A stretch of 32,170 bases of DNA from a virus (Duplodnaviria > Caudoviricetes): positions 1 through 32,170 of the IMG/VR virus record IMGVR_UViG_3300025160_000016; one strand, written 5' to 3'. Position 1 is the first letter of the stretch, and each line of letters begins with the position of its first letter. A program made the position numbers and the translations under genes. Shown one piece after another: positions 1,223 to 32,059 of this stretch. The notes under the pieces were generated by a model. That model was not told the DNA's origin. It was given only the letters and a program-made list of their open reading frames with translations, and made no database searches.

Positions 1223-1235
1223 CGTAACCGTTACA
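1223..1235. repeat. Dispersed palindrome copy 1 (CGTAACCGTTACA)
   Basis: Directly after a stop codon and 13 bp upstream of TTGACA at 1249. Confidence 0.95.
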
Positions 1236-1248
1236 CCAAAAATAAGAC

Positions 1249-1277
1249 TTGACAAGGCTTGTTCCGTTTGATAGTAT
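1249..1277 (+). promoter_or_regulatory. Sigma70-type promoter
   Basis: TTGACA (1249-1254), 17 bp spacer, TGn-TAGTAT (1272-1277), then AGGAGG RBS and ATG at 1299. Confidence 0.75.
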
Positions 1278-1298
1278 TATAACAGTAGGAGGTAAGTC

Positions 1299-1766
1299 AT
1301 GGCAAAACAACTAGTTAGCTCTAACATGAAAGCGGAGTCTAAGACTCTAAAGGACCGTCTCAATAAGGCCACTCAGCAGTCCAAGCCAAATCTGATGCCA
1401 CAAGACCCACCACCCCCGCCTCAGAAAGAAGAGGAGGAACCCATACCTGACATGACTGAGGTAGTCTATGACAAGGCTGACCAGATGAGACTACAGAGCC
1501 TAGTAGGAGACTATCTGGTGTGGCAGAGCGCGGCTAAGGAAGCTGGGGACGAGAAAGACAAGATTTCAGCACAGATCAAACAGATCGTAGGGACTTACGA
1601 GTTATCCAAGCTCACAGTCAACGGTAATTTGGTGAACTACTTTGATAGTCCCCGTAAGACTATCAAAGCTGAGTTGCTACTACAGCATAACGTGAGTCCC
1701 CGAGTGATTCAGGAGTGTACACAGGTAACGCATTCTTATACTCTGCGTATCACTAAACAGGGTTAG
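1299..1766 (+). CDS. Hypothetical protein (155 aa)
   Basis: AGGAGG RBS downstream of a promoter; Pro/Glu-rich linker and a helical C-terminal half. Confidence 0.8.
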   Translation: MAKQLVSSNMKAESKTLKDRLNKATQQSKPNLMPQDPPPPPQKEEEEPIPDMTEVVYDKADQMRLQSLVGDYLVWQSAAKEAGDEKDKISAQIKQIVGTYELSKLTVNGNLVNYFDSPRKTIKAELLLQHNVSPRVIQECTQVTHSYTLRITKQG

Positions 1767-1902
1767 ACGAAATCATCACGCTGCGTTGTGTCCAGTCAGC
1801 GATGAACGCCGCCGATCCTCAGATGCACCAACGGTATGTAGAGGGAACCGCAACTCTACGCCAAATCTGATGCGGAAGGGGTCGGCGGCTGATTAAGGAG
1901 GG

Positions 1903-3354: not shown

Positions 3355-3646
3355 GTCTGGTGAGGATATATACCTTGCTAAGGGTGAATCTCTACCCCTT
3401 ACCACTCCCGTATCTGTTGCAATCCCTGGAATGGCTTATGGCACACTGATACATCGTCTCCATATTGAAACTATATCAGGCACACCATTCCTAGTGAGAA
3501 ATCCAGGGGTATTTATGGCGAAGGGGTTTATTGTGGATCAGGGGCCATTACAGAATGGGCCAGTTGAGACCTATATATTCAACCTATCTAATCTCAACGT
3601 GCGAGTGAGCAAGGGCGAGTCCATAAGCTCCCTGATTGTACTGTAA
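3335..3646 (+). CDS. Degenerate dUTPase-fold protein
   Basis: C-terminus (YIFNLSNLNVRVSKGESISSLIV) resembles trimeric dUTPase motif IV; catalytic motifs are not recognisable. Confidence 0.5.
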   Translation: MIRVIFESGEDIYLAKGESLPLTTPVSVAIPGMAYGTLIHRLHIETISGTPFLVRNPGVFMAKGFIVDQGPLQNGPVETYIFNLSNLNVRVSKGESISSLIVL

Positions 3647-3654
3647 CGGTTACA
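3642..3654. repeat. Dispersed palindrome copy 2 (TGTAACGGTTACA)
   Basis: Contains the TAA stop of 3335..3646; symmetry extends to ACTGTAACGGTTACAGT. Confidence 0.95.
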
Positions 3655-3658
3655 GTTT

Positions 3659-4382: not shown

Positions 4383-5714
4383 TTACTTCTTTTTTGGTGT
4401 GACCTTTGGCGGGTCTTTCTTCCCCTCTCCTTTCTTGTTATTATTCGGCCTCTCTGGAAACCCCTCCGATTTCTCACCAACGGCCTCTTGAAGCTCCCTG
4501 TAGCACATCCTGGCACTCGTCAGGTTCGTGACCAGCCTGATTAGAGCCTTACCTATGAGGGCCACCTTTGGCGTAGCACCGGGAGCCATGAATAAGTAGA
4601 TAGCTTCCTTGATCTGAGTGGGGTTCATGCCCTTGTTCTTGTTGACCGAGCTACCTTCCTTGTCTGCCGCTTTGGAGATTGCCGCCGGGCTAACCGGCTT
4701 CGCGGCCTTCTCTTCCCGCGCCTTAGTCAGCTTCTCAGCTATCTCCCGTGCATGATCCGCTGCCTTGGTAGCCTTCTCTTTCAACTTACGCTCGTCACTC
4801 TGGGCGGTTTCCAGAGCCTTCTTCGCGGCAAGAGCTTCAGCCTGCTTTGCTCGAAACTCCTTAGCCGCCGCCTCTTTCTCTTCCTTGGTAGACTTCGACG
4901 GCATCTTGGTCTGAGTTTCATACGCCGCCGCCGCCGCTTCCGTGGCCGTTTTGTAGGTATCCTCTGTGACCTTGAGAACTTCCATAGCCTTGGTCAACTC
5001 CGAGGTGGCAGTCTCAGCCTTGACCTTGGCTTCCTCTTCCTTTTTGACAGAGGCAAGGTATTCGGCCTCTATCTTACCCTCAAATGCAGTCTCCTCTGCC
5101 GTTTCCTTGACCGCCCGCGCTAGGATCGGCTCCCACTTGTCCTCTGGTTCGCGGGTGAGGAAGTAAGCCGCCTTGACTCCAAGCTCCCCACTGTGAATCA
5201 TGTTCTGGATTTTCTTGGGGAAGTTTAGGAAACTCATACGCATATTGAGGAAAGAGTTGGTTGCAGGTTCCTTCAAACCGGGGCGGGTGAATATCTCTCT
5301 GATTTCCATGCGTGTCAGACCTTCACCCAAGAGTTGTGTAATAGCCACGGCCTCATCCATCGGACTCATGTTCTCGCGCTCGGTGTTCTCAGACAACTGC
5401 CGCCGGAGACGTTCAATCCCCGCAGATTGTACGATGATGGCCGGGATAGTCAACCCCGCACCATCCCTGTTTAGCCTAGTCACAGCCGCATGACGGTAGT
5501 TACCAGAGGTTAGGCTGTAGGTTCCATTCTTGATCGGTTCCACTTCAACCGGGACGATGACCCCGCCTTTCTCTGCAATGTCAGCGGCCAAAGAATCAAT
5601 TCGGGACTGCTTCAACCCGAACCGAATGTTACTATCTGCCACAATCTGCTCCGGCTTCAAATGAAGCAGGACACCAAGATCGGCAGTCTTGCTCGTCTGT
5701 GTTTTGTTTGCCAT
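4383..5714 (-). CDS. ParB/Spo0J/KorB-family DNA-binding protein with a long Ala/Lys/Glu-rich C-terminal coiled coil
   Basis: ParB N-domain signature: NIR, LAADIAEKGGVIVPVEV, GNYRHAA (GxxR), ENTERENMSPMDEA, then an HTH-like segment; AAGGAG RBS. Confidence 0.85.
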   Translation of the reverse strand: MANKTQTSKTADLGVLLHLKPEQIVADSNIRFGLKQSRIDSLAADIAEKGGVIVPVEVEPIKNGTYSLTSGNYRHAAVTRLNRDGAGLTIPAIIVQSAGIERLRRQLSENTERENMSPMDEAVAITQLLGEGLTRMEIREIFTRPGLKEPATNSFLNMRMSFLNFPKKIQNMIHSGELGVKAAYFLTREPEDKWEPILARAVKETAEETAFEGKIEAEYLASVKKEEEAKVKAETATSELTKAMEVLKVTEDTYKTATEAAAAAYETQTKMPSKSTKEEKEAAAKEFRAKQAEALAAKKALETAQSDERKLKEKATKAADHAREIAEKLTKAREEKAAKPVSPAAISKAADKEGSSVNKNKGMNPTQIKEAIYLFMAPGATPKVALIGKALIRLVTNLTSARMCYRELQEAVGEKSEGFPERPNNNKKGEGKKDPPKVTPKKK

Positions 5715-5951: not shown

Positions 5952-6260
5952 TCAGCTAACATCTGAGAGTTTAGATACTCTCCGAAACCATGTCAACAAA
6001 AATCCAGGTACTAGCAGTCTCATTCTGCTAGGGCTAGGAATAGTACCACAATCCCTAGTGGGAGCTATCAAATCGGCCACAACTGCATACCGTCCAGGTG
6101 TAACGGTTACGGTTTTCCTGAGTGCTGGGAGCAGTTTTGCAAGGGGCTGCACAGCGGAACTGCCACAATGCTCGCACCTATACTTATTCTGTAAGTCACT
6201 GAAAGCGCAGATGTTATCACAATTGGCGCATAGCAGAGCTTGGTTAAGGGGGATGTTCAT
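5952..6260 (-). CDS. Zn-ribbon hypothetical protein
   Basis: GGGAGG RBS; CANC...CEHCGS. Confidence 0.65.
   Translation of the reverse strand: MNIPLNQALLCANCDNICAFSDLQNKYRCEHCGSSAVQPLAKLLPALRKTVTVTPGRYAVVADLIAPTRDCGTIPSPSRMRLLVPGFLLTWFRRVSKLSDVS
5968..5996 (-). promoter_or_regulatory. Sigma70-type promoter for 5935 and the parB-like gene
   Basis: Minus strand TTGACA (5996-5991), 17 bp spacer, TAAACT (5973-5968). Confidence 0.7.
6099..6111. repeat. Dispersed palindrome copy 3 (TGTAACGGTTACG)
   Basis: Reads VTVT in 5952..6260; about 100 bp upstream of the parB-operon promoter. Confidence 0.95.
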
Positions 6261-7276: not shown

Positions 7277-8150
7277 TGATTCTCTCCTTCAAATCTGAAA
7301 TTAGACTCTGTAGGTTCCTGTACTCTGTCCTATCTTGTAAGAACTTTTGTTGAGCTTCCCTGTGCCTAACCTTCCAATCTCCAGACAATGTAGGCTTTGG
7401 GTCATAAGGCTTCCTGCGCCCAGTCATAGCGAAGAAAGCTCTACCGCCTCCACCATATATCTGAAACTGTTTCTGAGTGTGTTTGAACTCCGGCCGTCTG
7501 CCTACTATTCGCTCGAACTCAGCATAGAACATAGCCCATGTTAAGCGTTCTTGTCTGGCCCCGGCTAGGTACTGCTTATAGCTAGGGTGTCGAGGTTTAT
7601 CCTTACGGGCTAGAAGCCTAGATAACCCTTTTCGTATGTGCTTCTCCCCCTTCCACTTAGCCCATTCCTCCATAGTCACACCGTAACCGTCACACTTTTG
7701 GAGCATAGGATTCACTGGGAATTGAGGCTCCTGCTTGCCGAAGCTCTTTCTCATTTCACGCTCTAGCTTTCTTAGATGGTCTAGGAGCTTACCTGTACCA
7801 TTGCGGTTAGCTGCCTTACGGGTATGGTTCTTACGCTGTGACTCAGCCCACTTATTCACTACGCCTCTGATATGCCCCTCTTGCAAGCCTTGTTCTACTC
7901 TACCCCCGTAAGAGCTATAGGCGCCGGTGTATTTCTTGTCTTTACGTAGGTCCGTAACGTTGTAGACAACCTTATCCCCAGAGAATAACCTAACTCCACG
8001 CTCAGTTAGGACCGCTTCTAAAGTGGGAGCTTCCAAGGCAGCTAGTAAATGGACTCTCGATAGAATCAGCTTACTACCATCCTCGAATGGGACACCTATG
8101 ATCGGGCACTTGGCCCTAGCTGCTATCTCTAGTTGAAGTATTAGCTCCAT
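7269..8150 (-). CDS. Basic hypothetical protein (293 aa)
   Basis: Long ORF with a GAGG RBS in the coupled minus-strand array. Confidence 0.8.
   Translation of the reverse strand: MELILQLEIAARAKCPIIGVPFEDGSKLILSRVHLLAALEAPTLEAVLTERGVRLFSGDKVVYNVTDLRKDKKYTGAYSSYGGRVEQGLQEGHIRGVVNKWAESQRKNHTRKAANRNGTGKLLDHLRKLEREMRKSFGKQEPQFPVNPMLQKCDGYGVTMEEWAKWKGEKHIRKGLSRLLARKDKPRHPSYKQYLAGARQERLTWAMFYAEFERIVGRRPEFKHTQKQFQIYGGGGRAFFAMTGRRKPYDPKPTLSGDWKVRHREAQQKFLQDRTEYRNLQSLISDLKERISG
7682..7694. repeat. Degenerate palindrome copy (CGTAACCGTCACA, one core mismatch)
   Basis: Followed by CTTT, like several perfect copies. Confidence 0.5.
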
Positions 8151-9372: not shown

Positions 9373-9545
9373 TACTTTATCTCCCTTATTTCAAGTATCG
9401 CCCCCGGAGCTATCGTCCGGGAGTCTAGCATCAAACCCTGGCGCATAATCCGCCGTGAGGCAACAGGGAAGGATTCACGCGTAACCGTTACAGTTCTAAC
9501 TATTTTTCCTTCCCTGTCGAAGTGGGTTATTTCAAGATGTGCCAT
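9372..9545 (-). CDS. Small hypothetical protein (57 aa, MAHLEITHFDREGKIVRTVTVT...)
   Basis: Stop overlaps the next start (TAATG); below the ORF-track cutoff. Confidence 0.55.
   Translation of the reverse strand: MAHLEITHFDREGKIVRTVTVTRESFPVASRRIMRQGLMLDSRTIAPGAILEIREIK
9480..9492. repeat. Dispersed palindrome copy 4 (CGTAACCGTTACA)
   Basis: Reads VTVT in 9372..9545. Confidence 0.95.
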
Positions 9546-10558: not shown

Positions 10559-10699
10559 ACTACCTCCGTCACTCCGATTGTTGTGTCTCACTACAGCTGC
10601 CTACTTCGATGGACGAGCTACCTAGTGTAGTAGGTGTAACAGGCCGCGTCCGCTCTGTTCTTATCCTTTTCATACGTCTATTCTAATCCAAGCAAACAG

Positions 10700-11235
10700 C
10701 ATTCATATAGTACTTTTGTCTCATTTATTGCAGGACTAGCACACCGTACTATCTGGCGTACTGTGCATCCTATCAATTATAGGTGTCCTAAGAGGCATAA
10801 ATCTGTAACGGTTACACAGTCCTAGTACTGGCAAATGGGACATCTAGTACTGTCATGATATGATAGTAGTCCTAGTCATAACGGGATACCTAGTACCCAG
10901 GTGCCACTAGTGGCACGATACGTAATGCTACGGTACATCCTGCCTTCGGCAGTATGTCCCTCCGCATTAGCCAGCTGTGTGTATGTTATTGGTTATTATA
11001 CCACTTAACTACGTTAGTACTATTAGTCCTATTGTTGTAGTAGGCGAGTACTATCAGTACGGTACTGGTAGTCCCGACTAGTATAGGACTAGGGCGTAAT
11101 AGGCGTCCTGGGAGTCACGTGATAGAGAGCGGGTCCCATAGGGCATAGGACAGGGAGGGGGGGGTTTCCTTTAGGCCACACGGCCATACGCCTAATAGAG
11201 AGTGGGTCATTTGGGTAAAGCAATAGATAGGATTA
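10700..11235. other. Non-coding region rich in GTAC/CTAG micro-repeats and palindromes (candidate origin, packaging site or genome end)
   Basis: No ORF of 60 aa or more; repeated TAGTAC and AGTCCTAG; perfect 16-bp palindrome at 10901-10916; G-run at 11153-11164. Confidence 0.5.
10804..10816. repeat. Dispersed palindrome copy 5 (TGTAACGGTTACA)
   Basis: In the non-coding region. Confidence 0.95.
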
Positions 11236-11721
11236 CTACTGGTTCTGGATGTAACCGTTACACTTTTCGATGATGATTTTGCGGTCAGAATTATCTAATA
11301 GGCAGAAGTATTGAATGATGTCTGGGGTAGGGGCTGGTTCCCAGTGGGATTCATAGCAGACAAAGAAGTCATATATAGGTACGGATAGACCACAACATAA
11401 TTGGATTAAGGTATGATAGTAAGGGGATAATCTGTTATCTTCCACGCGGTATATGGTCTGCCTGATAAGATGGGAGGATATGGCTAGGTCGCCCTTATTC
11501 ATGCCTTTTTTTAGTCTAAGGTCATGCACAATATGGCCCAAAGTTAGGTAAGGATATCTATTCCTCGCCAATTTTGGAGGTGGTGGGGGTACTAGTTTAG
11601 GTGGAGGCGGATCGAGGGAAGTGGAGCAGCGTCGGCACAGATGATTACGGGTCTGAAATTGATTGAGGTGGCAACGGGGGCAACGCACAACCTCCCGAAT
11701 TTCTAGCAGGGCTGAACTCAT
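11236..11721 (-). CDS. Zn-ribbon plus XRE-family HTH transcriptional regulator
   Basis: REVVRCPRCHLNQFQTRNHLCRRC, a Pro-rich linker, then LGHIVHDLRLKKGMNKGDLA...RQTIYRVEDNRLSPYYHTLIQLCCGLSV (HTH_3 pattern). Confidence 0.85.
   Translation of the reverse strand: MSSALLEIREVVRCPRCHLNQFQTRNHLCRRCSTSLDPPPPKLVPPPPPKLARNRYPYLTLGHIVHDLRLKKGMNKGDLAISSHLIRQTIYRVEDNRLSPYYHTLIQLCCGLSVPIYDFFVCYESHWEPAPTPDIIQYFCLLDNSDRKIIIEKCNGYIQNQ
11250..11262. repeat. Dispersed palindrome copy 6 (TGTAACCGTTACA)
   Basis: Reads CNGY at the 3' end of the XRE gene. Confidence 0.95.
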
Positions 11722-11728
11722 GTGGGGT

Positions 11729-11757
11729 AGTATATGGTACAGCAAAGTTACTGTCAA
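11729..11757 (-). promoter_or_regulatory. Sigma70-type promoter for the XRE gene (probably leaderless)
   Basis: Minus strand TTGACA (11757-11752), 17 bp spacer, TATACT (11734-11729); ATG follows 7 nt later. Confidence 0.75.
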
Positions 11758-11774
11758 GAAAATAAATAAATAGC

Positions 11775-11802: not shown

Positions 11803-11902
11803 CTCTTTATATATATATAATACATTCACATAGCTTACTAACGTAATCTATGATTATAAGACCATAGGAAGTAAGAAGCATATATGCCCCTTCAGTTTTC
11901 AC

Positions 11903-11932
11903 TTGACACCCATAAACTGTAACGGTTACACT
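11903..11932 (+). promoter_or_regulatory. Sigma70-type promoter overlapped by a palindrome copy
   Basis: TTGACA (11903-11908), 18 bp spacer, TACACT (11927-11932); GGAGG RBS; ATG 11951. Confidence 0.6.
11918..11930. repeat. Dispersed palindrome copy 7 (TGTAACGGTTACA)
   Basis: Overlaps the promoter spacer and -10 box. Confidence 0.95.
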
Positions 11933-14083: not shown

Positions 14084-14096
14084 TGTAACGGTTACA
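14084..14096. repeat. Dispersed palindrome copy 8 (TGTAACGGTTACA)
   Basis: 1 bp after the terL stop. Confidence 0.95.
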
Positions 14097-16095: not shown

Positions 16096-16108
16096 TGTAA
16101 CCGTTACG
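16096..16108. repeat. Dispersed palindrome copy 9 (TGTAACCGTTACG)
   Basis: Intergenic, just upstream of the portal start. Confidence 0.95.
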
Positions 16109-16123: not shown

Positions 16124-17836
16124 ATGGGAGTCAGAGACAAGATAGTTGGAGCAATGGTAGGGGCATCTTTGGGGGCTAATAGTCTCCAAGCTGCTGTTTC
16201 TAGTGCAGAAGAGGCAGAATTACGCGCTCAAGAGAGTATGGATGGTGGATTGGCTAACCTTGAGTTATCTATTGATGCTCAAGGATGGTCTGACCTAACC
16301 TCCGGCTATGGACGTTGGGACTTCCCCCGTGAACTGGTCCGTAGGATGGTGACTCTCGCCCGCCTGATGTTCGTCTGGAATCCCCTTATCCATAGAGCCG
16401 TGATTGTACAGGAGCTTTACGTTTGGGGGGGCGGGGTCAAGATCAAAGGGGATGACCCAGAAGTAGATAGGGTGCTTCAGGATTTCTTCCAAGACCGTAA
16501 GAATCAACGAGTTATAGGGGAGGCTTGGCCGGAACGTGAGAGAGAACAACGGATTGAGGGTAACACTTTCCTTGTGTTTTACCGCAATAAAGCTAACGGG
16601 AGTGCTAGGGTTCGTCTATTTCCTTTCGATCAAATCACAGATATTATCTATAACCCAGAGGATGCTAAGGAGCCGTGGTTCTACCGAAGAAGCTCACCGG
16701 CCACAGAATCGGACATCCAGAGGGACGAACTGTACCCGGACATAGACTTTTCTCCTAGCCGTAAGTCCTCTATTCCTACCAATATACCAAAGATGGCCGG
16801 TTTGAGGATTAGATGGGACAACCCTGTACTTCATATATCCACTGGGGGTATGTCCCAAATGAAGTATGGCATCCCAGAAATCTTCTCTGCTTTGCCTTGG
16901 GCTACCGCCTATAAGAAGATTCTTGAGAACTTTGCTACCATCTTAGGGGCCTACGCTCGGATGGCAATGCAGATTACAGGGTTAGGGGGGAAGAAAGGGA
17001 TTGCTGCAACCAAAACTAAGTTGAATACTGCCTTGAGTAGTGGCAATCTTAGGGATACCAACCCACCGCCAAATACTGCGGGTTGGGGTTTATTCTCTGG
17101 TGAGGCCAAAGTTGCGGCTATTAAAACATCAGGCTCTACAACCGCACCAGATGAGGCCAGAGAGTTGCAGTTGATGGTTGCTGCTGGCACAGACCTACCA
17201 ATTCACTTCTTCGGGGACTCTGACATCGGCAATTACGCCACGTCTGCCACTTTGGATAGACCCACCGAGTTGAAAATGGTGTCCCGCCAGAGAATGTGGA
17301 TGTTCGTCATCATCCGTATCTGTGAGAAGCTGAAACAATGGTCCGCTTTGGCTCCTCAAGGTAAACTCCGGCTGGCTGGTTATACGGCTGAGTCATCTAA
17401 GGATATTTTTGATGGTGGCAAAACTGTAACCGTTACACCACCAAAGGGCAGATTACTCACAGAAACCATTAAGTTCCCTAACATCCTTGAGCGGGATGTT
17501 GTAGATAGGGTTAGGGCTGTGGTTCAAGCCATAACTCTTGGTGGTAGCCCTGCTGAGGGTATCTTCCCAGGCCGTAAGTTGTCGTTCAGGTTGCTCTTGG
17601 AAGCCTTGAGCATTGAAGAGGATGAGGCTGAGAAGATCATCAAGGAATACTACCCGAAGGAAGTCTATCAAGGGTTCTTTGACCCAAAGGATAGGGCTAA
17701 GAATGAGGAGTTGGAGGCTAAAGGTAAGGCTGATCTTGGTCAAGCCGCGCTGGATTCTGCTGCTGCTGCTAAGGTTGCCGCCAAGAATAAGCCTAAGCCT
17801 TCAGGTTCTCCGGCTAAGGCAGTTAGTAATAAATAG
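16124..17836 (+). CDS. Portal protein
   Basis: 570 aa between terL and the head genes; NPLIHRAV, EGNTFL, YGIPEIFSALPW, HFFGDSDIGNYATS. Confidence 0.85.
   Translation: MGVRDKIVGAMVGASLGANSLQAAVSSAEEAELRAQESMDGGLANLELSIDAQGWSDLTSGYGRWDFPRELVRRMVTLARLMFVWNPLIHRAVIVQELYVWGGGVKIKGDDPEVDRVLQDFFQDRKNQRVIGEAWPEREREQRIEGNTFLVFYRNKANGSARVRLFPFDQITDIIYNPEDAKEPWFYRRSSPATESDIQRDELYPDIDFSPSRKSSIPTNIPKMAGLRIRWDNPVLHISTGGMSQMKYGIPEIFSALPWATAYKKILENFATILGAYARMAMQITGLGGKKGIAATKTKLNTALSSGNLRDTNPPPNTAGWGLFSGEAKVAAIKTSGSTTAPDEARELQLMVAAGTDLPIHFFGDSDIGNYATSATLDRPTELKMVSRQRMWMFVIIRICEKLKQWSALAPQGKLRLAGYTAESSKDIFDGGKTVTVTPPKGRLLTETIKFPNILERDVVDRVRAVVQAITLGGSPAEGIFPGRKLSFRLLLEALSIEEDEAEKIIKEYYPKEVYQGFFDPKDRAKNEELEAKGKADLGQAALDSAAAAKVAAKNKPKPSGSPAKAVSNK
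17425..17437. repeat. Dispersed palindrome copy 10 (TGTAACCGTTACA)
   Basis: Reads VTVT in the portal gene. Confidence 0.95.
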
Positions 17837-17918: not shown

Positions 17919-19016
17919 ATGCCGAAGCGAAACAAAAGCGAAACTCAGACCCTCATTGATGCTTTGCGGGTGTTCGAGAAGTCCTATGATGGCCTGTTAG
18001 ATGTGGTTAGAAGTTTCACAGAATCCTCTGATGGTGCTGTAACGGTTACACCCGGAGAGGTTGTTATGGAGTCCGTTGACTTCGGGGACTACATGCCAGC
18101 TAAGGAAGCGGGTCTGTCCCATGTCCCGGTTAAGCTCATTGGTCCTGGTTGGGGTTCACACGCCTACTACTCTGAGGCTTTGCTGAAGAAGTCTGGTCCT
18201 GTGGCGTTCCGTAAGGGAACCCATATGTACTGGAATCATGCCTCCTCTACAGAGGAAGCTGAGAGACCAGAGGGTGACTTAAACAATCTGGCCGCTGTTC
18301 TCACCAAGGATGCGTACTGGGACCAGAACGGTGCAAAGGGTCCGGGGTTGTACTCTGAGGCTAAGGTGTTTTCGGACTACTCTACTCAATTAGCAGAGAA
18401 AGGCCCCCATATCGGAGTGTCTATCAATGCTGCTATCAAGTTCCATGAGGGCGAAGCTGATGGCAAAGTTGGCAGGATTGCCGATGATTTTATCCACGCC
18501 TTCTCAACAGATTTTGTGACTAAGGCCGGTGCTAAAGGTGCTCCGGTGATGGAATCCCAGCGGGTAGAAGCCCCGCAGAATCAACAGGTTAAGGAGGGGT
18601 CAATGAGTCCTGAAGAGATTAAGGCCGCTGAGGATGCCAGGACTGCCAAGGCAGCAGCTTTGGCAACGGAGAATGCCGACCTGAAGGCCCGGTTGCAGAA
18701 GATGGAGACTGGCAGCTTTGTGTCTGAGGCTGTCCGCTCTGTGAGCCTAGCCCTCACTGAGGCAGAGATTGAGTTCAACCCCAAGTTGGTTGAGCGGGCC
18801 TGTATCAGCCCAGTCATCAAAGAGGGCAAGTTGGACCCCGAATGGCTCAAAGGCATCGTGGCCGACTTCTCCCCTGTTGGTGGTGGAAGAATTGAAGGCA
18901 ATGGTGCTCCCCTCACCAAGGAATCCTCTAAGGAAACTGGGGCAAGAATCCGTGAGACCATGAAGCGACTGGGCGTACCAGAAGCCGGGTTGGATGTGGC
19001 CTCTTCTCTCAACTAG
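17919..19016 (+). CDS. Prohead protease/scaffold protein
   Basis: LIGPGWGSHAYYS, MYWNH, IGVSINA, STDFVTKAGAKG, then a helical scaffold-like C-terminus; position before the capsid genes. Confidence 0.75.
   Translation: MPKRNKSETQTLIDALRVFEKSYDGLLDVVRSFTESSDGAVTVTPGEVVMESVDFGDYMPAKEAGLSHVPVKLIGPGWGSHAYYSEALLKKSGPVAFRKGTHMYWNHASSTEEAERPEGDLNNLAAVLTKDAYWDQNGAKGPGLYSEAKVFSDYSTQLAEKGPHIGVSINAAIKFHEGEADGKVGRIADDFIHAFSTDFVTKAGAKGAPVMESQRVEAPQNQQVKEGSMSPEEIKAAEDARTAKAAALATENADLKARLQKMETGSFVSEAVRSVSLALTEAEIEFNPKLVERACISPVIKEGKLDPEWLKGIVADFSPVGGGRIEGNGAPLTKESSKETGARIRETMKRLGVPEAGLDVASSLN
18038..18050. repeat. Dispersed palindrome copy 11 (TGTAACGGTTACA)
   Basis: Reads VTVT in the protease/scaffold gene. 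Confidence 0.95.
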
Positions 19017-19462: not shown

Positions 19463-19475
19463 TGTAACCGTTACA
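19463..19475. repeat. Dispersed palindrome copy 12 (TGTAACCGTTACA)
   Basis: Intergenic, upstream of the capsid gene. Confidence 0.95.
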
Positions 19476-20958: not shown

Positions 20959-20971
20959 TGTAACCGTTACA
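20959..20971. repeat. Dispersed palindrome copy 13 (TGTAACCGTTACA)
   Basis: Immediately after the terminator U-tract. Confidence 0.95.
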
Positions 20972-22996: not shown

Positions 22997-22997
22997 T

Positions 22998-23801
22998 ATG
23001 CTTCGCTATTTCTTGATTGCGTTGCTGGCCTGCCAACTTTCTTTCGGCTCACGTGATTTTGACGGCACTGATGATTCAGTGGATTGTGGTTCTGGTGCGT
23101 CTCTTGATAACCTCAAAGCTGGTGGAGGCATGTCGATCTCTTTCTGGTTTTATGCGGACACCCTGACCCTTGGCGAAACTTACATAGAGAAAGAGGATAC
23201 GGGAGACTCTCTCGGCTGGGACATTAGGATTGGTGAGGGAGTAAGCAGCAGACTTCAATTTGTCCATCAGGGAACGACTGATTTTTTTAAAATAACTGTA
23301 AACGGCACCGTCACTACAGGAGTGTGGACTCATGTTGTTTTTACATGGGATGGTTCCGATACCGCAGCCAATTCCCATTTTTATGTGAATGGTACTGAGG
23401 CATCTTATCAGAGTGGTGGCGATGGTGTGAGTTTAACAGACGATTCAGCGCAACCTTTTATGATCGGCGCTGAAAGTAATGAGACCAACTCGTTTGATGG
23501 AAGGATCGCGGAAGTAGCAGTGTGGGGTGGTGGAGCTATTTTGGCAAATGAGATTGCCGCACTCGCCAATAAATTACCACCTACTAGAGCCGTCCGATCA
23601 AAGACTCTGGTATTTTGGGGTCCGCTAGGACAAGGTTCCCCCGAACCAGATTGGAGCGGAAATGCGAACAATTGTACCGTAACTGGGGCGGTGGTAGCGG
23701 ATCATCCGCCGGTTGCGCCTTACTTCGGATATATTTACAGGGACGCGTTAGATATCCTGGCAGGATTCCTTTCGGGGTTAAGATATGCTTTCCAAAGTTA
23801 A
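22998..23801 (+). CDS. LamG/concanavalin A-like lectin-domain protein with a signal peptide
   Basis: MLRYFLIALLACQLSFG|; FDGTDDSV, WTHVVFTWDG, FYVNG, FDGRIAEVAVW. Confidence 0.85.
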   Translation: MLRYFLIALLACQLSFGSRDFDGTDDSVDCGSGASLDNLKAGGGMSISFWFYADTLTLGETYIEKEDTGDSLGWDIRIGEGVSSRLQFVHQGTTDFFKITVNGTVTTGVWTHVVFTWDGSDTAANSHFYVNGTEASYQSGGDGVSLTDDSAQPFMIGAESNETNSFDGRIAEVAVWGGGAILANEIAALANKLPPTRAVRSKTLVFWGPLGQGSPEPDWSGNANNCTVTGAVVADHPPVAPYFGYIYRDALDILAGFLSGLRYAFQS

Positions 23802-26800
23802 GTGGCTTGTTCTACTCCTTCTCTGCGCGGCGACTCTTCAAGCCGCCACGATCAACTGTACTCATCCCTGTCTTGAGCCGACCCGCGTAGCAAATGCGGC
23901 GGCACACGAAGCAGCTAATACGGCCCAGTGGATCGCGTTCAAGGCTAACCTGGACCAACACCTGACAGATACCGTAGGCGATCCAGATTCGTTCGCACTC
24001 TACTACCACATCACCGGGAACGCAACCTATGGAGCGAAAGTAGCTCCATTTATGTGGCAGGTTGTCCGCACCAAAGAGCAAGAGTATCGGATCACATCCA
24101 TCTCAACGGCGAACCCTGCCGTAGTCACTACGCCAGTTGCACATAACCTAACGAACGGAGCAACGATTTGGATTATGGGAGCCACAGGTGATTGGGCTGC
24201 ATTAAATAGCGCCCACATCGCCACCGTGACCGGAACCACCACCTTTACCATCCCAGTAGACACATCCCTTTATATGGGCGCGTTCCCGGCCACCATCACG
24301 GCTTTTATTGGGAATCCAAATCTAAACATAGAGGGGGATTGGTGGAGGAACAACGCCTACGCATTCGCTCTCGGATACGATCTTGCCAGAGACCTCATCG
24401 TTGGGGATGAGCGAGATGCGCTTATATTCTTTCTTGCTGCTGAGGTTCAAGGAAGTTTTAATGAGTGGCTTGGGAACACGACCCAAGAGAATGTCGGAGG
24501 GAACATAAATTCAGGGTATCTTAGAACCAATATCGCGGTCACGATAGCCCTGAAAGATGACTGGGTGGACGCCCAAAGTACTTATGACACTCTACGTGAT
24601 CTTGTTGGTACCTACATGATTCCTGCCCTGAATGGCCTTCCGTGGAAGGGGGGGGCAACACCGGAAGGGTGGGAATACGGGCGGCAAGCGGTAAACATGA
24701 TGCTGACAGCCTTGATTAACATCGAAGCTGGGACTGGAGAGGACGTGTGGGCACTTGTAGAAAATTGGCCCGAAGATCAACTCGATCACCTTCTTTCTTC
24801 AATTTCCCCAACCGTTTCAGTGAAGAACTCCTTTTTCTGGCCTCAGTACGGGGATTTGCTGACTCAAAACCAGATCGCCTACAACGACCTCGACCGAGCG
24901 ATGATCTCTGGGCTATACAGTTACTTCAAAACAATCAATCCAGACGCGACCAGGGCGGCCTATGCACTCTACTGGTTGCAGAACATGAAAGATGAATATA
25001 ATAATGATACCTACCTGATTTACGAAGTAATGCGCCTAACGGCTGGTGGTTCCACTGCAACTGATTGGCGTACTGGAACCAATCTTACGCAGTACTTAGC
25101 ATCCGGCATGGGAATCATGTCGGCGAGAAGCTCCTGGGCAACAGACGCGAATTGGCTGACTTGCTTTGCCGGAATACGGGCTACGAATCACTGGCATAAT
25201 ACTTCCGGCGCATGTGATTGGTATCGTGGAGCTACTAAATTAAGTGTTACGGATAACGGCTATAATGGGATTTTCAAGCAACAGGTGGTTAAGAACGGGC
25301 CTCAAGTTGGGGTTTATCCGTATGTGAACGGCCCTGTACCAGGAAATACTCTGGGCGTGTTCGGGCAGGATGTCACTTCTCGCTATCGAGCGGTTCCTGG
25401 AACTTCAAGTCATGTTCGGTATGACGGGACGCTCCACTGGAAGCGAGTTACACCCGGTAGCATGCCGGAAGTGGATTTAGTCCAGAGTAACTTCCTGTAT
25501 ATAAACCCAAACTTCTTGGTTCTGTTTCGGCATCACACCTGCGAGGCTCCGGGCTGCTTTGCTACTGACCAATTCCAGACCCCAGCAGCTCCGGCCACGG
25601 TGGGGATTGTGGGAGACCGCATCACGATCACGAACGGAGACAATAAACTTTTCATTAACGGGGTCTATCCGACGGATTTGAACTACATCGAACGGGACAA
25701 CAACAAGCATCACGTCCTTAACTACCGGAAATCAAATCCCGCACTTTTGTTGATGGACAGCATTCATACAAAAAGGTTCCCGTTTACGCTCATCCTCACA
25801 GGGGCTACGGATGAATGCACCGATTTCAATGGGACCTGGACTGCCACGGTCCCTTCCGGTGGGGTCAACAACGGCTTTAGTGAACATGGTGTTACTATCC
25901 CTTATGATGCCACGAGCGAGACGTGCGACATGTCGGACCAGGACATTGAGACTGACTTGGTTGTCAATGGAAACAACCAACCTAACGGGGATCGGGTGGA
26001 TTCGATCAGTCCCACCATTTCGGAGGAAACATACCGCTTCTATGTTTACGAGTCCGGCGACGGGAGCGCGGTTGCTTCTACCGTGACAGCGTTGACGAAC
26101 CTGACGAACGCCATTGGCGCGGAGTTTGGGGATCAGGTAGTTGCGGCCCGAACGGGCGCAAGTGAAACGGCCACGCTCATTTTCAATTTCAACCCAACCG
26201 GCTCAAAAACTGTTCGCATTCTTGGCAACACGCCTTCAACTGGCTATGCCCGCTCTGTTGTGGGAAGCACATTTACGCTTTCGTCTCCCGGCTCGGACGT
26301 GACGGCGGATTCTGCCGGGGTGATTCTCACGGACGATGCGGGCGGAACCCCCACTCCGTTTATTGGCCTTGCGCCTACTGCGTTCACCTTCAATGCAACG
26401 GAGGGTGGCGCAAATCCGGCAACGCAAAGTCTCTCTATTACGAATCAGGGCGGTGGTTCGCTGGGCGCTTGGACCGCAGCGGGAAGCCAAGCGTGGCTTA
26501 CTTGCGCCCCGGCGTTAGGAACGGATGATGCAACATGCGCCGTCACGATAGACACCACGGGCCTTGCCGACATGACCTATAACGAGACGCTGACCATTAC
26601 GGCGGCGGCGGCTTCAAACAGCCCGCAGGTGGTTAATGTGACGCTGGTACTGAGTCCCGCCCCAGTCCCCACGATTGCGGCAACGCCGACCTCGCTCGCG
26701 TTCATGGCTGCATTGGGCGACATGGACCCGTCCGATACGGTAGCCATTGACGGAGGGGCCGTTGCATTGGGAAGTTGGACGTGTGGCGTTACTGCTGGGG

Positions 26801-27300
26801 CCGGATTGGAAGTTAGCCCGCTTGCAGGGGCAGGGAACGCTACGCTTACGATCACTTGGGTTTTGACGGGCCTGGCCGCCGGAAGCTACAACGGAAATGT
26901 CCAGTGTACCGATCCGACCGCCACTAATACGCCATTCAACATCCCGGTGACACTGGAACTGACAGGCTCCGATCCGCAGATTTCCGTGGATACCAACAGC
27001 CCAACAATGGACAGTCAGACGAATGCCGGAAGAACTCAAGTTATCACAGTGACGAACATTGGCGGCTTCCACGCAGATTGGGCATGGAGTGTGGTTGTGC
27101 TGGGAGATGAGTGCGGCTTGACGATCACCCCCACAACTGGAGGAACCGGAGAGACATTTACGATTTCCGCAAGTCCTCCTGCTGGCGTCAACGGTAGATG
27201 TACCGATCAAATACGGATTCTCGATAATTATGACGGCCAACTCATCATGCAAGTTGCGTTCACGGTTCGGCGATTCCTCCCGCTGAGGATAGGGCCATGA
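23785..27300 (+). CDS. Secreted multidomain protein: heparinase II/III-like lyase, E1-FCCH-like inserts and C-terminal BACON-like repeats
   Basis: Signal peptide MLSKVKWLVLLLLCAATLQA|; PEGWEYG, ARSSW, NHWHN; ITSISTANPAVVTTPVAHNL; repeats such as PTAFTFNATEGGANPATQSLSITN...AWL...NSPQVVNVTL. Confidence 0.75.
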   Translation: MLSKVKWLVLLLLCAATLQAATINCTHPCLEPTRVANAAAHEAANTAQWIAFKANLDQHLTDTVGDPDSFALYYHITGNATYGAKVAPFMWQVVRTKEQEYRITSISTANPAVVTTPVAHNLTNGATIWIMGATGDWAALNSAHIATVTGTTTFTIPVDTSLYMGAFPATITAFIGNPNLNIEGDWWRNNAYAFALGYDLARDLIVGDERDALIFFLAAEVQGSFNEWLGNTTQENVGGNINSGYLRTNIAVTIALKDDWVDAQSTYDTLRDLVGTYMIPALNGLPWKGGATPEGWEYGRQAVNMMLTALINIEAGTGEDVWALVENWPEDQLDHLLSSISPTVSVKNSFFWPQYGDLLTQNQIAYNDLDRAMISGLYSYFKTINPDATRAAYALYWLQNMKDEYNNDTYLIYEVMRLTAGGSTATDWRTGTNLTQYLASGMGIMSARSSWATDANWLTCFAGIRATNHWHNTSGACDWYRGATKLSVTDNGYNGIFKQQVVKNGPQVGVYPYVNGPVPGNTLGVFGQDVTSRYRAVPGTSSHVRYDGTLHWKRVTPGSMPEVDLVQSNFLYINPNFLVLFRHHTCEAPGCFATDQFQTPAAPATVGIVGDRITITNGDNKLFINGVYPTDLNYIERDNNKHHVLNYRKSNPALLLMDSIHTKRFPFTLILTGATDECTDFNGTWTATVPSGGVNNGFSEHGVTIPYDATSETCDMSDQDIETDLVVNGNNQPNGDRVDSISPTISEETYRFYVYESGDGSAVASTVTALTNLTNAIGAEFGDQVVAARTGASETATLIFNFNPTGSKTVRILGNTPSTGYARSVVGSTFTLSSPGSDVTADSAGVILTDDAGGTPTPFIGLAPTAFTFNATEGGANPATQSLSITNQGGGSLGAWTAAGSQAWLTCAPALGTDDATCAVTIDTTGLADMTYNETLTITAAAASNSPQVVNVTLVLSPAPVPTIAATPTSLAFMAALGDMDPSDTVAIDGGAVALGSWTCGVTAGAGLEVSPLAGAGNATLTITWVLTGLAAGSYNGNVQCTDPTATNTPFNIPVTLELTGSDPQISVDTNSPTMDSQTNAGRTQVITVTNIGGFHADWAWSVVVLGDECGLTITPTTGGTGETFTISASPPAGVNGRCTDQIRILDNYDGQLIMQVAFTVRRFLPLRIGP

Positions 27301-27309
27301 GGATGTACA

Positions 27310-27864
27310 ATGAGTAATATCAGTAAAGTCCGTACTCTTAGTGGTGATCCCATTCTCTATGGTAAAACTATCCTCACAGGAGATGGTGTATCGGTTCGAT
27401 TTCAAGTACTTAACTTTCCAATATATCCAGATACGGAGAATGTAGATGATGGGGGTAGTCCTTCACCTGAGTACACAATGGATGATTCTGTTGGACTTAT
27501 CACGTTTACTGCTGCCCCAGCCAATACCGAAAGTGTAACCGTTACATATAAGCACTCCCTTTTGACTGATGCCGAGATACAGGATTTCTTGGACCTTGAG
27601 GATGATGATGTGAAATTGGCTGCTGCTGACGCTTTGGACTCTATTGCATCATCTCAAGCTCTCATCCAAAAGAAGATCAAGGTTTTAGACCTGCAAACAG
27701 ATGGTCCGGCGTTAGCTGATGCCTTGCATAGATTAGCTGCTGATTACAGAAAGCAGGTTTTGGATGCGGATATGCAAGGTGCCGACTTCGATTACGCCGA
27801 GCAAATCAATGATGCTCCTGGATTCTATGAGAAAGTTATTAAGGATTGGATGAGAGAAGGATAA
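27310..27864 (+). CDS. Head-to-tail adaptor protein
   Basis: C-terminal LLTDAEIQDFL...AAADALDSIAS...DLQTDGPALADALH pattern; position after the head genes. Confidence 0.7.
   Translation: MSNISKVRTLSGDPILYGKTILTGDGVSVRFQVLNFPIYPDTENVDDGGSPSPEYTMDDSVGLITFTAAPANTESVTVTYKHSLLTDAEIQDFLDLEDDDVKLAAADALDSIASSQALIQKKIKVLDLQTDGPALADALHRLAADYRKQVLDADMQGADFDYAEQINDAPGFYEKVIKDWMREG
27534..27546. repeat. Dispersed palindrome copy 14 (TGTAACCGTTACA)
   Basis: Reads VTVT in the adaptor gene. Confidence 0.95.
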
Positions 27865-28772: not shown

Positions 28773-29167
28773 TTAGCCGTGTAGCCGCAGTCATAACCTT
28801 ACTGAACGATCAATTCTCTAGTCCTCAAATGGCCGGGATTAGCCCGGTTCCTTTACCTTCAGACGCGGGCGATCCTTATGTTACGGTCCAAGAGATTCTA
28901 GCTCAAGAGCTAGAGAGCCTTACTGGTCAGAGTGGTATGGCCCGCTCCACTATCCAAGTGAATGTATGGAGCCATGACTATGAGGTAGCTTATGCCCTGA
29001 GAGAAGCTATCAAATCCTACCTATTTGGGTTCTCTGGCAGCGTAGGTGGATCACCCCCGGATGCTGTCATTGGTTCTGTCAATCATCGGGGGGATCGAGA
29101 ATTACAGGACGGCTCTATTGAACGTCACCAGCTAATTTCAAGGTTTTTGATATGGTGGGAAGCGTAA
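28769..29167 (+). CDS. Tail terminator (DUF3168-like)
   Basis: PYVTVQEI and IQVNVWSHDYEVAYALREAIK; synteny. Confidence 0.75.
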   Translation: MISRVAAVITLLNDQFSSPQMAGISPVPLPSDAGDPYVTVQEILAQELESLTGQSGMARSTIQVNVWSHDYEVAYALREAIKSYLFGFSGSVGGSPPDAVIGSVNHRGDRELQDGSIERHQLISRFLIWWEA

Positions 29168-30570
29168 CGGTTACACCTGATTGGCTTGGTGAGACAGTAG
29201 TTTTGATCGGTGGTGGGCCATCCCTAACAAAGCAGGATGTGGATTATTGTAAAGGTAAGGCTAGGGTTATCGCTATCAATGATGCCTACAGACTAGCTCC
29301 GTGGGCTGATATTCTGTACGCTTGCGATGGCGCTTGGTGGGACTTACATAACAAGGATGTTACGAATCAGTTCAAAGGTGCAAAATGGACTTGTAGCTTG
29401 GATGCGGCTACCAAATATAATCTGAACCATATAAGGCATAAGTCTAATCCAGGTTTGTCTTTTGACCCCATGCTAATTCATAACGGCAATAACTCAGGGT
29501 ATCAAGCCCTGAACTTGGCAGTTTTATTGGGAGCCAAAAAGATAGTGCTTATTGGATTTGATATGATGGTGCGGCCTCATAAGTCTCACTGGTTTGGGGA
29601 TCATCCAAGGGGACTGAGCCAAATATCTAGTCAGGGGTTACAGAAATTCATAACTGCCTTTAATAGCTCCCTGACTGATCTACATAAAGCTCAGGTTTCT
29701 GTTATCAACTGTAGTCGGCATACAGCCTTAACTTGCTTCCCTCGTGCTGATATACAAGATGCCTTTGACTCTTATAGGTCAATGTTAGAAGCTGCGCCCT
29801 TACTAGAAGTTGTATGCAAATCAGTTCCAACATCCTACTCTGTCCCTATAGAAAAAACCAGTCCTAGGTTTGCCCAGGCTTGGGCTAGAGGTTGTGGTGG
29901 AGTAGTTGATACGTCCGGTAGGTTAGCTCCTGGGGCTGTGGCTATGTTTGGCTCCCCTGCCAGATGGGATATACTAAGGCAAGCTATCGGAGAGGGTAGG
30001 GACTGGTACTATGCGGATCACGCATACTTCGGGAGATTTGAATACTATAAGGTAACTAAGAATGCTTATCAGTTATCGAGCAACCATTTAGGTTTAGGCC
30101 CGAATGCTTATAGATTTGACCGCCTTAAGGTAGAAATTAAACCGTGGCGCAATTCTGGGGATTTCATTTTAGTTTGCCCCCCCGATGAGAAGTTTGCTAA
30201 ATTACATAGATTTAATGGGTTAGAGTGGCTTAGTCATGTATGCTCCGCTATCTCAGGATTTACAGATAGACCCTTGATGGTTAGACAGAGGGAAGATATA
30301 ACATACTCTAATACTTTATCCTCTGACCTAGTTGGAGCTTGGTGTATGGTGACGTATGTATCCAACGCCGCCGTAGAGTCCGTGTGTGCTGGGGTTCCAG
30401 TGATTTGCCTCGGTGATTGCGCGGCGTCTATTATGGGCAGTAACAATCTAGCCGACATAAATGATCCGCCAACACCTGATGGGCGTAGAGAGTGGGCATC
30501 CAGATTAGCGGCTAATCAATGGACCATGCAAGAGATAGCATCTGGTATGGCTTGGAGGGAGTTGCAATGA
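29152..30570 (+). CDS. Two-domain glycosyltransferase-like protein (DUF115/Maf-like N-domain plus capsule-synthesis-like GT-B C-domain)
   Basis: IGGGPSL, IAINDA, GNNSGYQALNLAVLLGAKKIVLIGFDM; C-terminal VTYVSNAAVESVCAGVPV. Confidence 0.7.
   Translation: MVGSVTVTPDWLGETVVLIGGGPSLTKQDVDYCKGKARVIAINDAYRLAPWADILYACDGAWWDLHNKDVTNQFKGAKWTCSLDAATKYNLNHIRHKSNPGLSFDPMLIHNGNNSGYQALNLAVLLGAKKIVLIGFDMMVRPHKSHWFGDHPRGLSQISSQGLQKFITAFNSSLTDLHKAQVSVINCSRHTALTCFPRADIQDAFDSYRSMLEAAPLLEVVCKSVPTSYSVPIEKTSPRFAQAWARGCGGVVDTSGRLAPGAVAMFGSPARWDILRQAIGEGRDWYYADHAYFGRFEYYKVTKNAYQLSSNHLGLGPNAYRFDRLKVEIKPWRNSGDFILVCPPDEKFAKLHRFNGLEWLSHVCSAISGFTDRPLMVRQREDITYSNTLSSDLVGAWCMVTYVSNAAVESVCAGVPVICLGDCAASIMGSNNLADINDPPTPDGRREWASRLAANQWTMQEIASGMAWRELQ
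29163..29175. repeat. Dispersed palindrome copy 15 (CGTAACGGTTACA)
   Basis: Contains the stop of 28769..29167 and reads VTVT in the next gene. Confidence 0.95.
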
Positions 30571-31280
30571 TACTCTATAAAGAAGGCCGCTGGTGGTTGC
30601 CGGATGGGGAGCAGCATCTACAAGAGTGGATGAACAAGGTAAACCACACTGAAATTGCAAATGGTGAATCTCGCTTAACCTACCAATACCATAAGTACAA
30701 AGTGGCTATGGAATATGTCAGGAGCCGTAGGCACTTCGTAGATGTTGGTGCCCATGTTGGACTTTGGTCATGGGTTATGGCCCGAGATAGTGTAACGGTT
30801 ACATCTTTTGAGCCTATGCCGGAGCATTGTCAGTGTTGGGCTGAGAATATGAAACACTGTTCTAATGCCAGACTTCAACCTTATGCCCTTGGCGCAGAGC
30901 AGGGGAGGGTTAGAGTCAAGACTAGAACCCCCGGCAGTTCTGGCGATACAGGAGTTGACCCCATAGCCGAAAGGTCTAGTTTGAGGGCCACTATTCAAGA
31001 GGATGGACATCTGGCAGAGTTACGCACACTAGACTCATTCGATCTACAAGATGTTGATTTCATTAAGATTGACTGTGAGGGCTATGAGTTATATGTCCTC
31101 CAAGGTGCGGTTGAGACTATACTGAAGTGGAAGCCTTGTCTCATAGTGGAACAGAAGCCGGAGACTGGTATGGCTGACAGGTATGGGCTTGCTGCCAAGG
31201 ATTCAATCAAGTTCATGGACAGGTTAGGGGCTAGGATGAGGAAGGTAATCCAAGGGGATTATATCTTTAGCTTTGATTAG
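30567..31280 (+). CDS. FkbM-family SAM methyltransferase
   Basis: VDVGAHVGLWS, SFEP, TLDSF, DFIKIDCEGYELYVLQGA. Confidence 0.9.
   Translation: MILYKEGRWWLPDGEQHLQEWMNKVNHTEIANGESRLTYQYHKYKVAMEYVRSRRHFVDVGAHVGLWSWVMARDSVTVTSFEPMPEHCQCWAENMKHCSNARLQPYALGAEQGRVRVKTRTPGSSGDTGVDPIAERSSLRATIQEDGHLAELRTLDSFDLQDVDFIKIDCEGYELYVLQGAVETILKWKPCLIVEQKPETGMADRYGLAAKDSIKFMDRLGARMRKVIQGDYIFSFD
30791..30803. repeat. Dispersed palindrome copy 16 (TGTAACGGTTACA)
   Basis: Reads VTVT in the FkbM gene. Confidence 0.95.
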
Positions 31281-31289
31281 GGGTACAAA

Positions 31290-32051
31290 ATGGGATTTGG
31301 GGATGAGATCATGGCATCCGGCCATGCCAGAGTTGAATCAGAGAGGTTAGGTGGTGGGAAGATTCATATTCTCGGCACAAATCATAGGGCACGCAATCAC
31401 GAGGTTTGGTGGGATTTGCCTTGGATAGCTGTTAAGGATGAGAAATCTGTTGGGTCTGTGCATAATGCTAGTGGGTGCCGCCCTTATATTACCTACCCGT
31501 TTACTATACATACTGGTTGCACCTACTCAGGTTGGAGAGCCAGAGACTATATGGGGGCCATCTATCTTAGGGGGTATGAGGTAGATCACGCTAGGTCTCT
31601 TGTTGGTCATCTAGGCCAATTCGCCCTAGTAGAGCCTGAGCTTAAGGAAGGCTCTAACCCCAACAAACAATGGGGATTACTGAAATGGGGCAGGCTGACT
31701 GACATGCTAGTTAAAGCTATGCCAGTAGTGCAAACGCTTATGCCCGGTAAGAAAGCCCTACCTGGGGTTATAGGCATTCGTTGTGATACCTTCCGTATAG
31801 CAGCCGCCGTGTTAAGTTTGGCTCATGTTCTGGTTCTTCCTGAAGGTGGGCTACATCATGCAGCCGCCGTACTGGGTAAGCCCGCTGTGGTCCTGTTCGG
31901 GGGGTCACCGTCACCCGAATACACAGGATACCCTATCCATACCAACATAGCTGCCGACAAACATTGTGGGGCTTGGCTACCCTGTAAACACTGTGCCCAG
32001 TTCTGGGATGGCCTAACTCCTGAGTATGTGTATTCCACTATCAAAGTGTAA
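31290..32051 (+). CDS. GT9-like (heptosyltransferase-fold) glycosyltransferase
   Basis: MGFGDEIM, NKQW, EGGLHHAAAVLGKPAVVLFG and a C-terminal CGAWLPCKHC. Confidence 0.8.
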   Translation: MGFGDEIMASGHARVESERLGGGKIHILGTNHRARNHEVWWDLPWIAVKDEKSVGSVHNASGCRPYITYPFTIHTGCTYSGWRARDYMGAIYLRGYEVDHARSLVGHLGQFALVEPELKEGSNPNKQWGLLKWGRLTDMLVKAMPVVQTLMPGKKALPGVIGIRCDTFRIAAAVLSLAHVLVLPEGGLHHAAAVLGKPAVVLFGGSPSPEYTGYPIHTNIAADKHCGAWLPCKHCAQFWDGLTPEYVYSTIKV

Positions 32052-32059
32052 CGGTTACA
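32047..32059. repeat. Dispersed palindrome copy 17 (TGTAACGGTTACA)
   Basis: Contains the TAA stop of the GT9-like gene. Confidence 0.95.

Follow-up and report, generated by a model that had tools for sequence, protein, structure and literature searches.

A dispersed palindrome array and an orphan ParB-family protein in related tailed phages

Why would a phage repeat one short palindrome along its genome, and which protein would read it? The question arises from positions 1 to 32,170 of the Caudoviricetes record IMGVR_UViG_3300025160_000016 (the window), a tailed-phage fragment with PolA, a leftward early region containing an orphan ParB-family gene (parB), and terminase, portal, capsid and neck genes, in which copies of the palindrome YGTAACSGTTACR are scattered. 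An original prediction held that a ParB-family protein acts through these dispersed sites, and the comparison of related phages supports it: array and parB occur together whether the search starts from the motif (4/4 versus 0/13 records) or from the genes (18/18 versus 0/5). Because the array tracks parB while an XRE gene and a Cro-like gene do not, the phage ParB is very probably the protein that binds the palindromes. Judging from its sequence, it would probably also close as a CTP-dependent clamp and slide on DNA. The full mechanism, comprising tiled loading sites, a coat of clamps and a few repressed promoters, is one towards which we lean.

The palindrome array and its candidate binder

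A motif scan of the window found 17 exact copies of YGTAACSGTTACR, at all of the predicted starts, and one near copy at 7682 with a single mismatch; 100 dinucleotide shuffles gave a mean of 0.03 copies and a maximum of 1. The centre base is G or C at every site, as predicted, and never A or T, and no other palindrome with 5-bp arms is present in more than two copies. On average, the window is tiled by roughly one palindrome per 2 kb. The predicted spacing of 0.4–3.4 kb mostly holds, apart from one gap of 6.6 kb, the largest (20959–27534), which spans accessory virion genes. The predicted symmetry of the flanks is less common than the original wording 'often' suggested, with AAAG or AAAC on the left of 5/18 sites, CTTT or GTTT on the right of 7/18 and both at only 2/18. 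Two further records of the same phage extend the array: G070, which overlaps positions 29612–32170 at 100% identity, contributes seven more sites, and locus L005 (100% identity to the window phage) contributes one, giving 25 exact sites across about 52 kb of a 53.5-kb contig.

On a manually made gene list, 11 of the 18 sites in the window fall at a gene edge or in an intergenic stretch, compared with 21% expected (p 2.5e-4). Six VTVT peptides occur in the 27 window genes, and because all six are encoded by the site's own codons, the DNA rather than the peptide is kept inside genes. The sites, which carry no strand, are listed below with their counterparts in the related phage G011.

1223..1235: site located at a stop codon, with TTGACA (1249) 13 bp further on
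3642..3654: site overlapping a stop codon; identical place in G011
6099..6111: site within a small gene (VTVT), with the parB promoter downstream; comparable position in G011
7682..7694: near copy with one mismatch, within a gene
9480..9492: site within a small gene (VTVT)
10804..10816: non-coding site near a strand switch
11250..11262: site at the 3′ end of the XRE gene
11918..11930: site over the spacer and −10 box of the TTGACA promoter (11903) before the packaging genes; same offset in G011
14084..14096: site directly past the terL stop codon; identical place in G011
16096..16108: site directly ahead of the portal gene; identical place in G011
17425..17437: site within the portal gene; VTVT in the window, VIIT in G011
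18038..18050: site within the head protease gene; VTVT in the window, VMIT in G011
19463..19475: site between the decoration and major capsid genes; identical place in G011
20959..20971: intergenic site following a T-run
27534..27546: site within a virion gene (VTVT)
29163..29175: site at a gene junction; identical place in G011
30791..30803: site within a methyltransferase gene (VTVT)
32047..32059: site overlapping a stop codon

The non-coding region around the strand switch (10600–11230), which contains site 10804, is rich in CTAG and GTAC and is a candidate origin or genome-end region.

The open reading frame at 4383–5714 on the minus strand is indeed ParB-like, matching the PHROG ParB family at E 5e-15 and Pfam ParB_N at E 7e-4, below the cut-off. 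A scan of viral contigs with the single protein returned nothing; one with the alignment succeeded. The protein has 26 relatives at 32–51% identity, and 26 of 27 matches were taken into the alignment. The resulting profile matches Spo0J, Myxococcus ParB, Noc and KorB (E 3e-11 to 1e-5, KorB at 1e-5), and the best Foldseek match of the predicted structure (pLDDT 83) is Noc (E 4e-9). In architecture, a ParB N-domain leads into a helix–turn–helix (HTH) interrupted by a GGRKG wing; a hairpin of two helices (about 140 residues) and a helical C-domain of 80 residues complete the protein. The HTH, with predicted helices at residues 135–141 and 153–164, follows the N-domain, and the G011 orthologue scores above the Pfam cut-off for HTH_ParB. 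The C-domain, conserved as it is, had no match in Pfam or by Foldseek against the PDB. In the window, the gene and its parts are as follows, all on the minus strand.

4383..5714: orphan ParB-family gene, 443 amino acids; CTPase-type N-domain, HTH and wing, hairpin and C-domain; likely binder
5361..5669: ParB N-terminal domain, residues 16–118, from alignment and profile
5220..5324: HTH region, residues 131–165; N153 invariant, five residues of the GGRKG wing missing in the window protein
4719..5144: Ala/Lys/Glu-rich two-helix hairpin, residues 191–332, from the predicted structure
4461..4703: conserved four-helix C-terminal domain without a Pfam or PDB match; presumed dimerisation domain
5968..5996: sigma70-like promoter TTGACA-17-TAAACT preceding a small gene and parB; site 6099 lies about 100 bp away

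Five residues (R31, G71, R74, N110 and R113) are invariant in 26/26 proteins, the last four aligning with Spo0J motifs, and the N-domain retains the GxxR and Asn/Arg residues that contact CTP. The catalytic positions differ: the Glu of GExR is kept in 1/26, and the Gln position is Asn in 25/26. In Myxococcus ParB, Gln and Glu (Q52 and E93) are the catalytic residues for CTP hydrolysis. A preprint identifies the Glu as catalytic and reports that ParB that does not hydrolyse CTP forms hyperstable clamps that spread far (10.1101/2021.05.05.442810). From these residues, CTP hydrolysis by the phage ParB may be slow and, because the GExR Glu is lost and the preprint describes hyperstable non-hydrolysing clamps, its clamps would be long-lived. 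An N-terminal ParA-binding motif, as defined in PMC12704722, was found in 0/26 proteins. Nor was an amphipathic N-terminus of the Noc type, the N-termini being variable and polar in 26/26 (moment 0.09 in the window protein), and the Noc-like part of the original prediction is not supported.

Two relatives encode the ParB C-domain alone near parB, in G039 (19615–19884, minus strand, 89 amino acids, E 1e-11) and in G077 (21868–22092, plus strand, 74 amino acids, E 1e-16), possibly as dominant-negative inhibitors. Ten loci of distant ParBs (L058, L059, L061–L063 and L066–L070) each hold an even palindrome, its arms reading TGTCGAAC, two or three times; it is parS-like and a different system.

Array and parB across related phages

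Sibling palindromes are a general feature of the close ParB clade. At least one GTAA-N3/4-TTAC site, mostly GTAAT-S-ATTAC, is present in 28 of the 29 close-clade loci other than the window, several of which are redundant. The whole records first examined have 18–33 sites each and near-complete related genomes 13–46. The window's own spelling was found elsewhere only in G070, which is the same phage, and across 557 kb of sequence from 57 loci, either with distant ParBs or from portal relatives, the exact motif was absent and no GTAA-type palindrome was among the top repeats. Array-bearing relatives carry unrelated head and tail modules. G001, G004 and G005 have only the replication genes and parB in common with the window, yet their sites, often at stop/start overlaps, span their unrelated structural genes.

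To relate array and gene we used two routes. The motif-first scan gave 149 loci from 44/64 parts, of which 50 were chosen (multi-site contigs, singles of middling GC and long controls) and 49 analysed. Of the 17 records with a completeness of 90% or more, the four with 25–38 sites all encode the ParB clade and none of the 13 with one to three sites does, a split of 1 in 2380 by plain count, uncorrected for kinship. The gene-first route used PolA and helicase scans for sisters (50 searched, 18 fetched) and a palindrome scan of 30 records. An array is present in 18/18 records of the close ParB clade and in 0/5 ParB-less sisters (84–100% complete), and two fragments have an array with the parB region lying outside the fragment. 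All five distant-ParB records have an odd palindrome of their own (10 copies in G084, 13 in G091, 6 in G087, 5–6 in G088 and 15 in G085, the last weak, with 4-bp arms). Because the replication operon is largely or wholly retained in the five ParB-less sisters, parB is the only tested common gene that separates the groups. The complete, ParB-less G090 nests with G087 and G088 at support 1.0 in helicase and UDG-exonuclease trees, which places one loss within a group of ParB-encoding phages; it has one such site against six in each of the other two, and ParB-less G082 and G096 have two and one, a background of one to two. The arrays of G087 and G088 have 5-bp arms, a central G or C and even spacing (coefficient of variation (CV) 0.22 and 0.08).

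Arrays of the distant group are sparse and regular, with five sites 11.6 kb apart in G088 (CV 0.08) and six 7.2 kb apart in G087; site density is about a quarter of that in the close clade, and the hairpin of the G087 and G088 ParBs is much shorter or missing. The first 50 kb of L657, the record of a Leptospira phage with parAB, have six TTGAGT-N8 inverted repeats and no comparable array. Among portal relatives (37–40%), of which G006, G008 and G010 were checked for ParB and five records for the motif, the complete G008 has neither ParB nor array.

The spelling of the palindrome changes among close relatives, and does so at every site of a genome. Ten window sites could be paired with G011 sites at homologous places (pairs hand-picked by gene order), each in the other spelling, and the change altered protein sequence in the portal (VTVT in the window, VIIT in G011) and the protease (VTVT and VMIT). 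Members of the close clade use GTAAT-S, GTAAC-S (window), GTAAA-S (G064), GTAAT-W (G077), GTATA-W (G065), GTAYT-W (G066), GTAGT-S (G069) and GTAGC (G073), among others. With mixed half-sites in G012, G024 and G039 and an even-spaced form in L031, there are about ten spellings overall. Even-spaced variants, with two central bases, make up 6/31 sites in G001 and all six in L031, and occur in L387 too.

Several protein features accompany these spellings. In G024 and L021, a His in the recognition helix accompanies an A at base 5; it was noted there before G064 was seen, in which it recurred with the predicted A. In a tree that leaves the HTH out, the three proteins branch separately. The three proteins with wing deletions are the top users of C. 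Among distant ParBs, G087 and G088 share SRVSE and TC-type sites, and G085 and G091 share PATVxQYE and TAG-type sites. Since four residues around the HTH are reported to switch specificity between ParB and Noc (PMC7383237), a drift of specificity within the clade is plausible.

No cultured close relatives were found. Searches of GTDB genomes gave no integrated prophage with this PolA, the one close match of nine being a stand-alone phage-like contig in a bin; portal relatives in four Chloroflexota bins (39–43%) are too distant for host assignment, and host lookup via cluster members and Atlas returned no host. PolA is split across the clade into a UDG plus 3′–5′ exonuclease gene and a separate polymerase gene; in L005 (16508–18889, minus strand), the window phage's UDG-exonuclease has 793 amino acids and a LAGLIDADG-containing insertion, likely an intein.

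Coverage, promoters and alternative explanations

Gaps between sites are more even than random in 16/19 records. TTGAC lies within 45 nt of only 59/482 sites, against 44 expected. A minority of sites looks regulatory: in the window, site 1223 is 13 bp before a −35 box, and site 11918 lies over the −10 box of the packaging promoter, an arrangement conserved in G011. By eye, a site lies at most 330 nt upstream of parB in 24/30 loci, with TTGAC between site and start in 23. No ParA was detected in any of ten records (PF13614 in 0/5 complete records; PF01656 in 0/5, including the window and G070), in keeping with the predicted orphan state, and none of five complete records has a tyrosine or serine integrase. 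Because gaps are even, few sites lie near TTGAC and neither ParA nor integrase was found, we favour tiling for coverage.

A ParB dimer would bind each palindrome and close as a CTP clamp, and closed clamps would slide 1–2 kb from each site. Tiled sites would then give a protein coat over the whole phage genome, which would repress the few promoters with an adjoining site (that of parB itself and that of the packaging genes), as KorB does. The coat of long-lived clamps may itself be the selected function, and coverage could serve to shield, to organise replicating DNA, to silence or to exclude relatives.

Several observations weigh against parts of this reading. Even spacing is not significant in the window alone (p 0.13) and may partly stem from the gene-edge preference (11/18 here), as the null model ignores gene edges. 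The palindromes of G085, G087 and G088 fail to rise above the top-scoring background ones of ParB-less records. The five ParB-less sisters represent only two independent lineages, and two of them are only 84–87% complete. The temperate Gordonia phage Kiko has a ParB-HTH gene and no comparable array, so the link between ParB and array is not universal. The residue rules (His and wing deletion) were formed post hoc and do not hold throughout: L022 has His, but T at 13/14 sites, and Trp goes with four spellings. In a Mantel distance-matrix test, the motif follows the ParB HTH at a partial r of 0.57–0.60 (0.20 for Cro), PolA given the HTH reaches 0.57 and 3/35 PolA control windows reach 0.57–0.60; because the PolA controls reach the same r, we count this covariation as weak and not specific.

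Could ParB instead bind the sites with no role beyond that of an immunity repressor or a roadblock to transcription, like a stoperator repressor, and hold a non-integrating carrier state in which spellings are immunity groups? The gene-edge preference, the site over the −10 box of the packaging promoter in two phages, the site at the parB promoter and the lack of integrase all fit, and the C-domain-only mini-genes of two records could be anti-repressors. We consider this unlikely, as just 59/482 sites have TTGAC nearby, promoter control needs no even spacing, the carrier state is purely hypothetical and the sites are symmetric whereas stoperators are described as directional (PMC4351075). A dispersed centromere, in which ParB-coated sites enlist the host's ParA or SMC so that phage DNA is positioned or segregated, would suit the fold and motifs of partition ParBs and has a parallel in the dispersed centromere sites of N15. 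We rate it, and with it the originally predicted segregation role, as improbable: ParA is missing from all ten records and the ParA-binding motif from all 26 proteins, 25–46 sites far exceed partition needs, and the replication operon is of the PolA type.

Other binders fare worse. The small Cro-like HTH protein is the serious rival among them: its gene heads the replication operon in 11/11 of the first relatives, often with a site upstream, and the window's XRE protein (11236–11829) had been proposed as an alternative binder. XRE was rejected, being present in 2/30 records only (the window and G011). The Cro-like gene was rejected on its distribution, being undetected in G087 and G088, which have arrays, and detected in G096 and G100, which have none. 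Its recognition helix, moreover, differs among phages with identical motifs and is shared by G024 and G039 despite their different motifs, and in G064, which has 41 sites, a ribbon–helix–helix (RHH)-like gene takes its place. A small HTH binder of either kind is thus very improbable. The same RHH-like substitution occurs in L471 (371–610, minus strand). For a host regulator or nucleoid protein, the other binder raised originally, the AT-rich odd palindrome, which resembles Fur/Zur-type sites, leaves some room. The chance of it is slight, however: close relatives use about ten spellings that track a phage gene, and the commonest spelling is at or below chance in prokaryote genomes (about 600 estimated stretches in scattered taxa, against about 1100 at equal base frequencies), with no chromosomal array seen in this partial scan (13/64 parts; 80 of 121 loci read). 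That the repeats are a by-product of peptide preference, repeat-mediated recombination or assembly is hardly credible. Many sites do fall at stop/start overlaps or in VTVT or MIT peptides, but it is the DNA that is conserved (6/6 exact codons), sites outside coding sequence match one another exactly, the sequences beside the sites are unrelated and independent assemblies of the same phage agree.

Relation to known systems

The phage system would work like the loading sites of KorB or Noc, yet it does not belong to the ParABS, KorB or Noc systems as these are defined. It shares with KorB and its OB operator of IncP plasmid RK2 a ParB-family CTPase/HTH protein (profile E 1e-5), an odd palindrome with a central G/C and sites that are dispersed over a 50–60-kb replicon, some directly upstream of −35 boxes. 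In contrast to KorB, it belongs to a phage, has no detected ParA/IncC partner and has 25–46 evenly spaced sites rather than 12; its protein has an inserted wing, a 140-residue hairpin and an unmatched C-domain, and about ten natural spellings exist. A KorA-like partner was not identified, with no direct search for a lock partner. KorB is reported to act as a CTP clamp whose closure is required for distal but not proximal repression (PMC11790492), from twelve sites on 60 kb (PMC13768133). Noc of Bacillus, the best Foldseek match, is likewise described as an orphan ParB that loads at scattered palindromes (NBS) and spreads with CTP (PMC8429893, PMC7383237). Unlike Noc, which is reported to require its amphipathic helix (PMC8429893), the phage-encoded protein is without such an N-terminal helix, and its site is odd, of 11–13 bp rather than 16 bp. 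With ParABS of chromosomes, P1 and N15 it shares the fold and CTP-contact residues, whereas no ParA was detected and no clustered centromere is present.

Among phages, the Cluster A mycobacteriophages likewise have numerous sites across the genome at gene junctions, the stoperators, which serve a repressor. These phages integrate, their repressor is not a ParB, and the stoperators are asymmetric and directional, whereas the window sites are perfect palindromes and no integrase was found in related records. Cluster O mycobacteriophages such as Corndog are reported to have 34 exact 17-bp palindromes of unknown function, a third of them inside genes; the same account describes no integrase and no ParA, names the ParB-like gp90 as one of three candidate binders and thinks it unlikely to serve stability (PMC4351075). 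We find gp90, of which the Kiko protein is a homologue, to be homologous to the phage ParB clade over the N-domain and HTH (probability 96.9), with a different site, different C-terminal two thirds and sites crowded on one arm. Glycosyltransferase-like and methyltransferase genes lie within the neck/tail operon of the window (29152–32051), and a comparable gene set is reported for Cluster O (PMC4351075). Orphan ParBs are said to be common on mobile elements, those of phages being mostly fusions with further domains (PMC12704722), and some phage ParBs that lack a DNA-binding domain to activate DNA-modifying enzymes (PMC13229309), whereas the window ParB retains its HTH. The literature searched, with most subscription papers outside it, describes no phage ParB with genome-wide sites beyond Cluster O.

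Our boldest proposal, which we offer tentatively, is that non-integrating phages carry their own chromatin. Slow-hydrolysing, long-armed CTP clamps at phage-specific barcodes would wrap the genome, label it as self and protect it from host defence or rival phages; protein and 25–45 barcodes would be re-spelled together, and the Cluster O repeats would be explained. Orphan ParBs are common in phages, mostly without a known job or target, and here the likely target can be read from sequence. The clade offers about ten natural protein–site pairs, together with losses in nature, mixed half-sites as intermediate states and one genome-wide re-spelling, a natural series for the co-evolution of a DNA-binding protein with dozens of sites. 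The pairs could include orthogonal ParB/parS combinations for DNA labelling, and gp90 becomes a testable candidate for the Cluster O repeats, unexplained since 2015. In that re-spelling every site changed, even at the cost of portal and protease residues, and the whole set opens a direct test of the role of phage ParBs.

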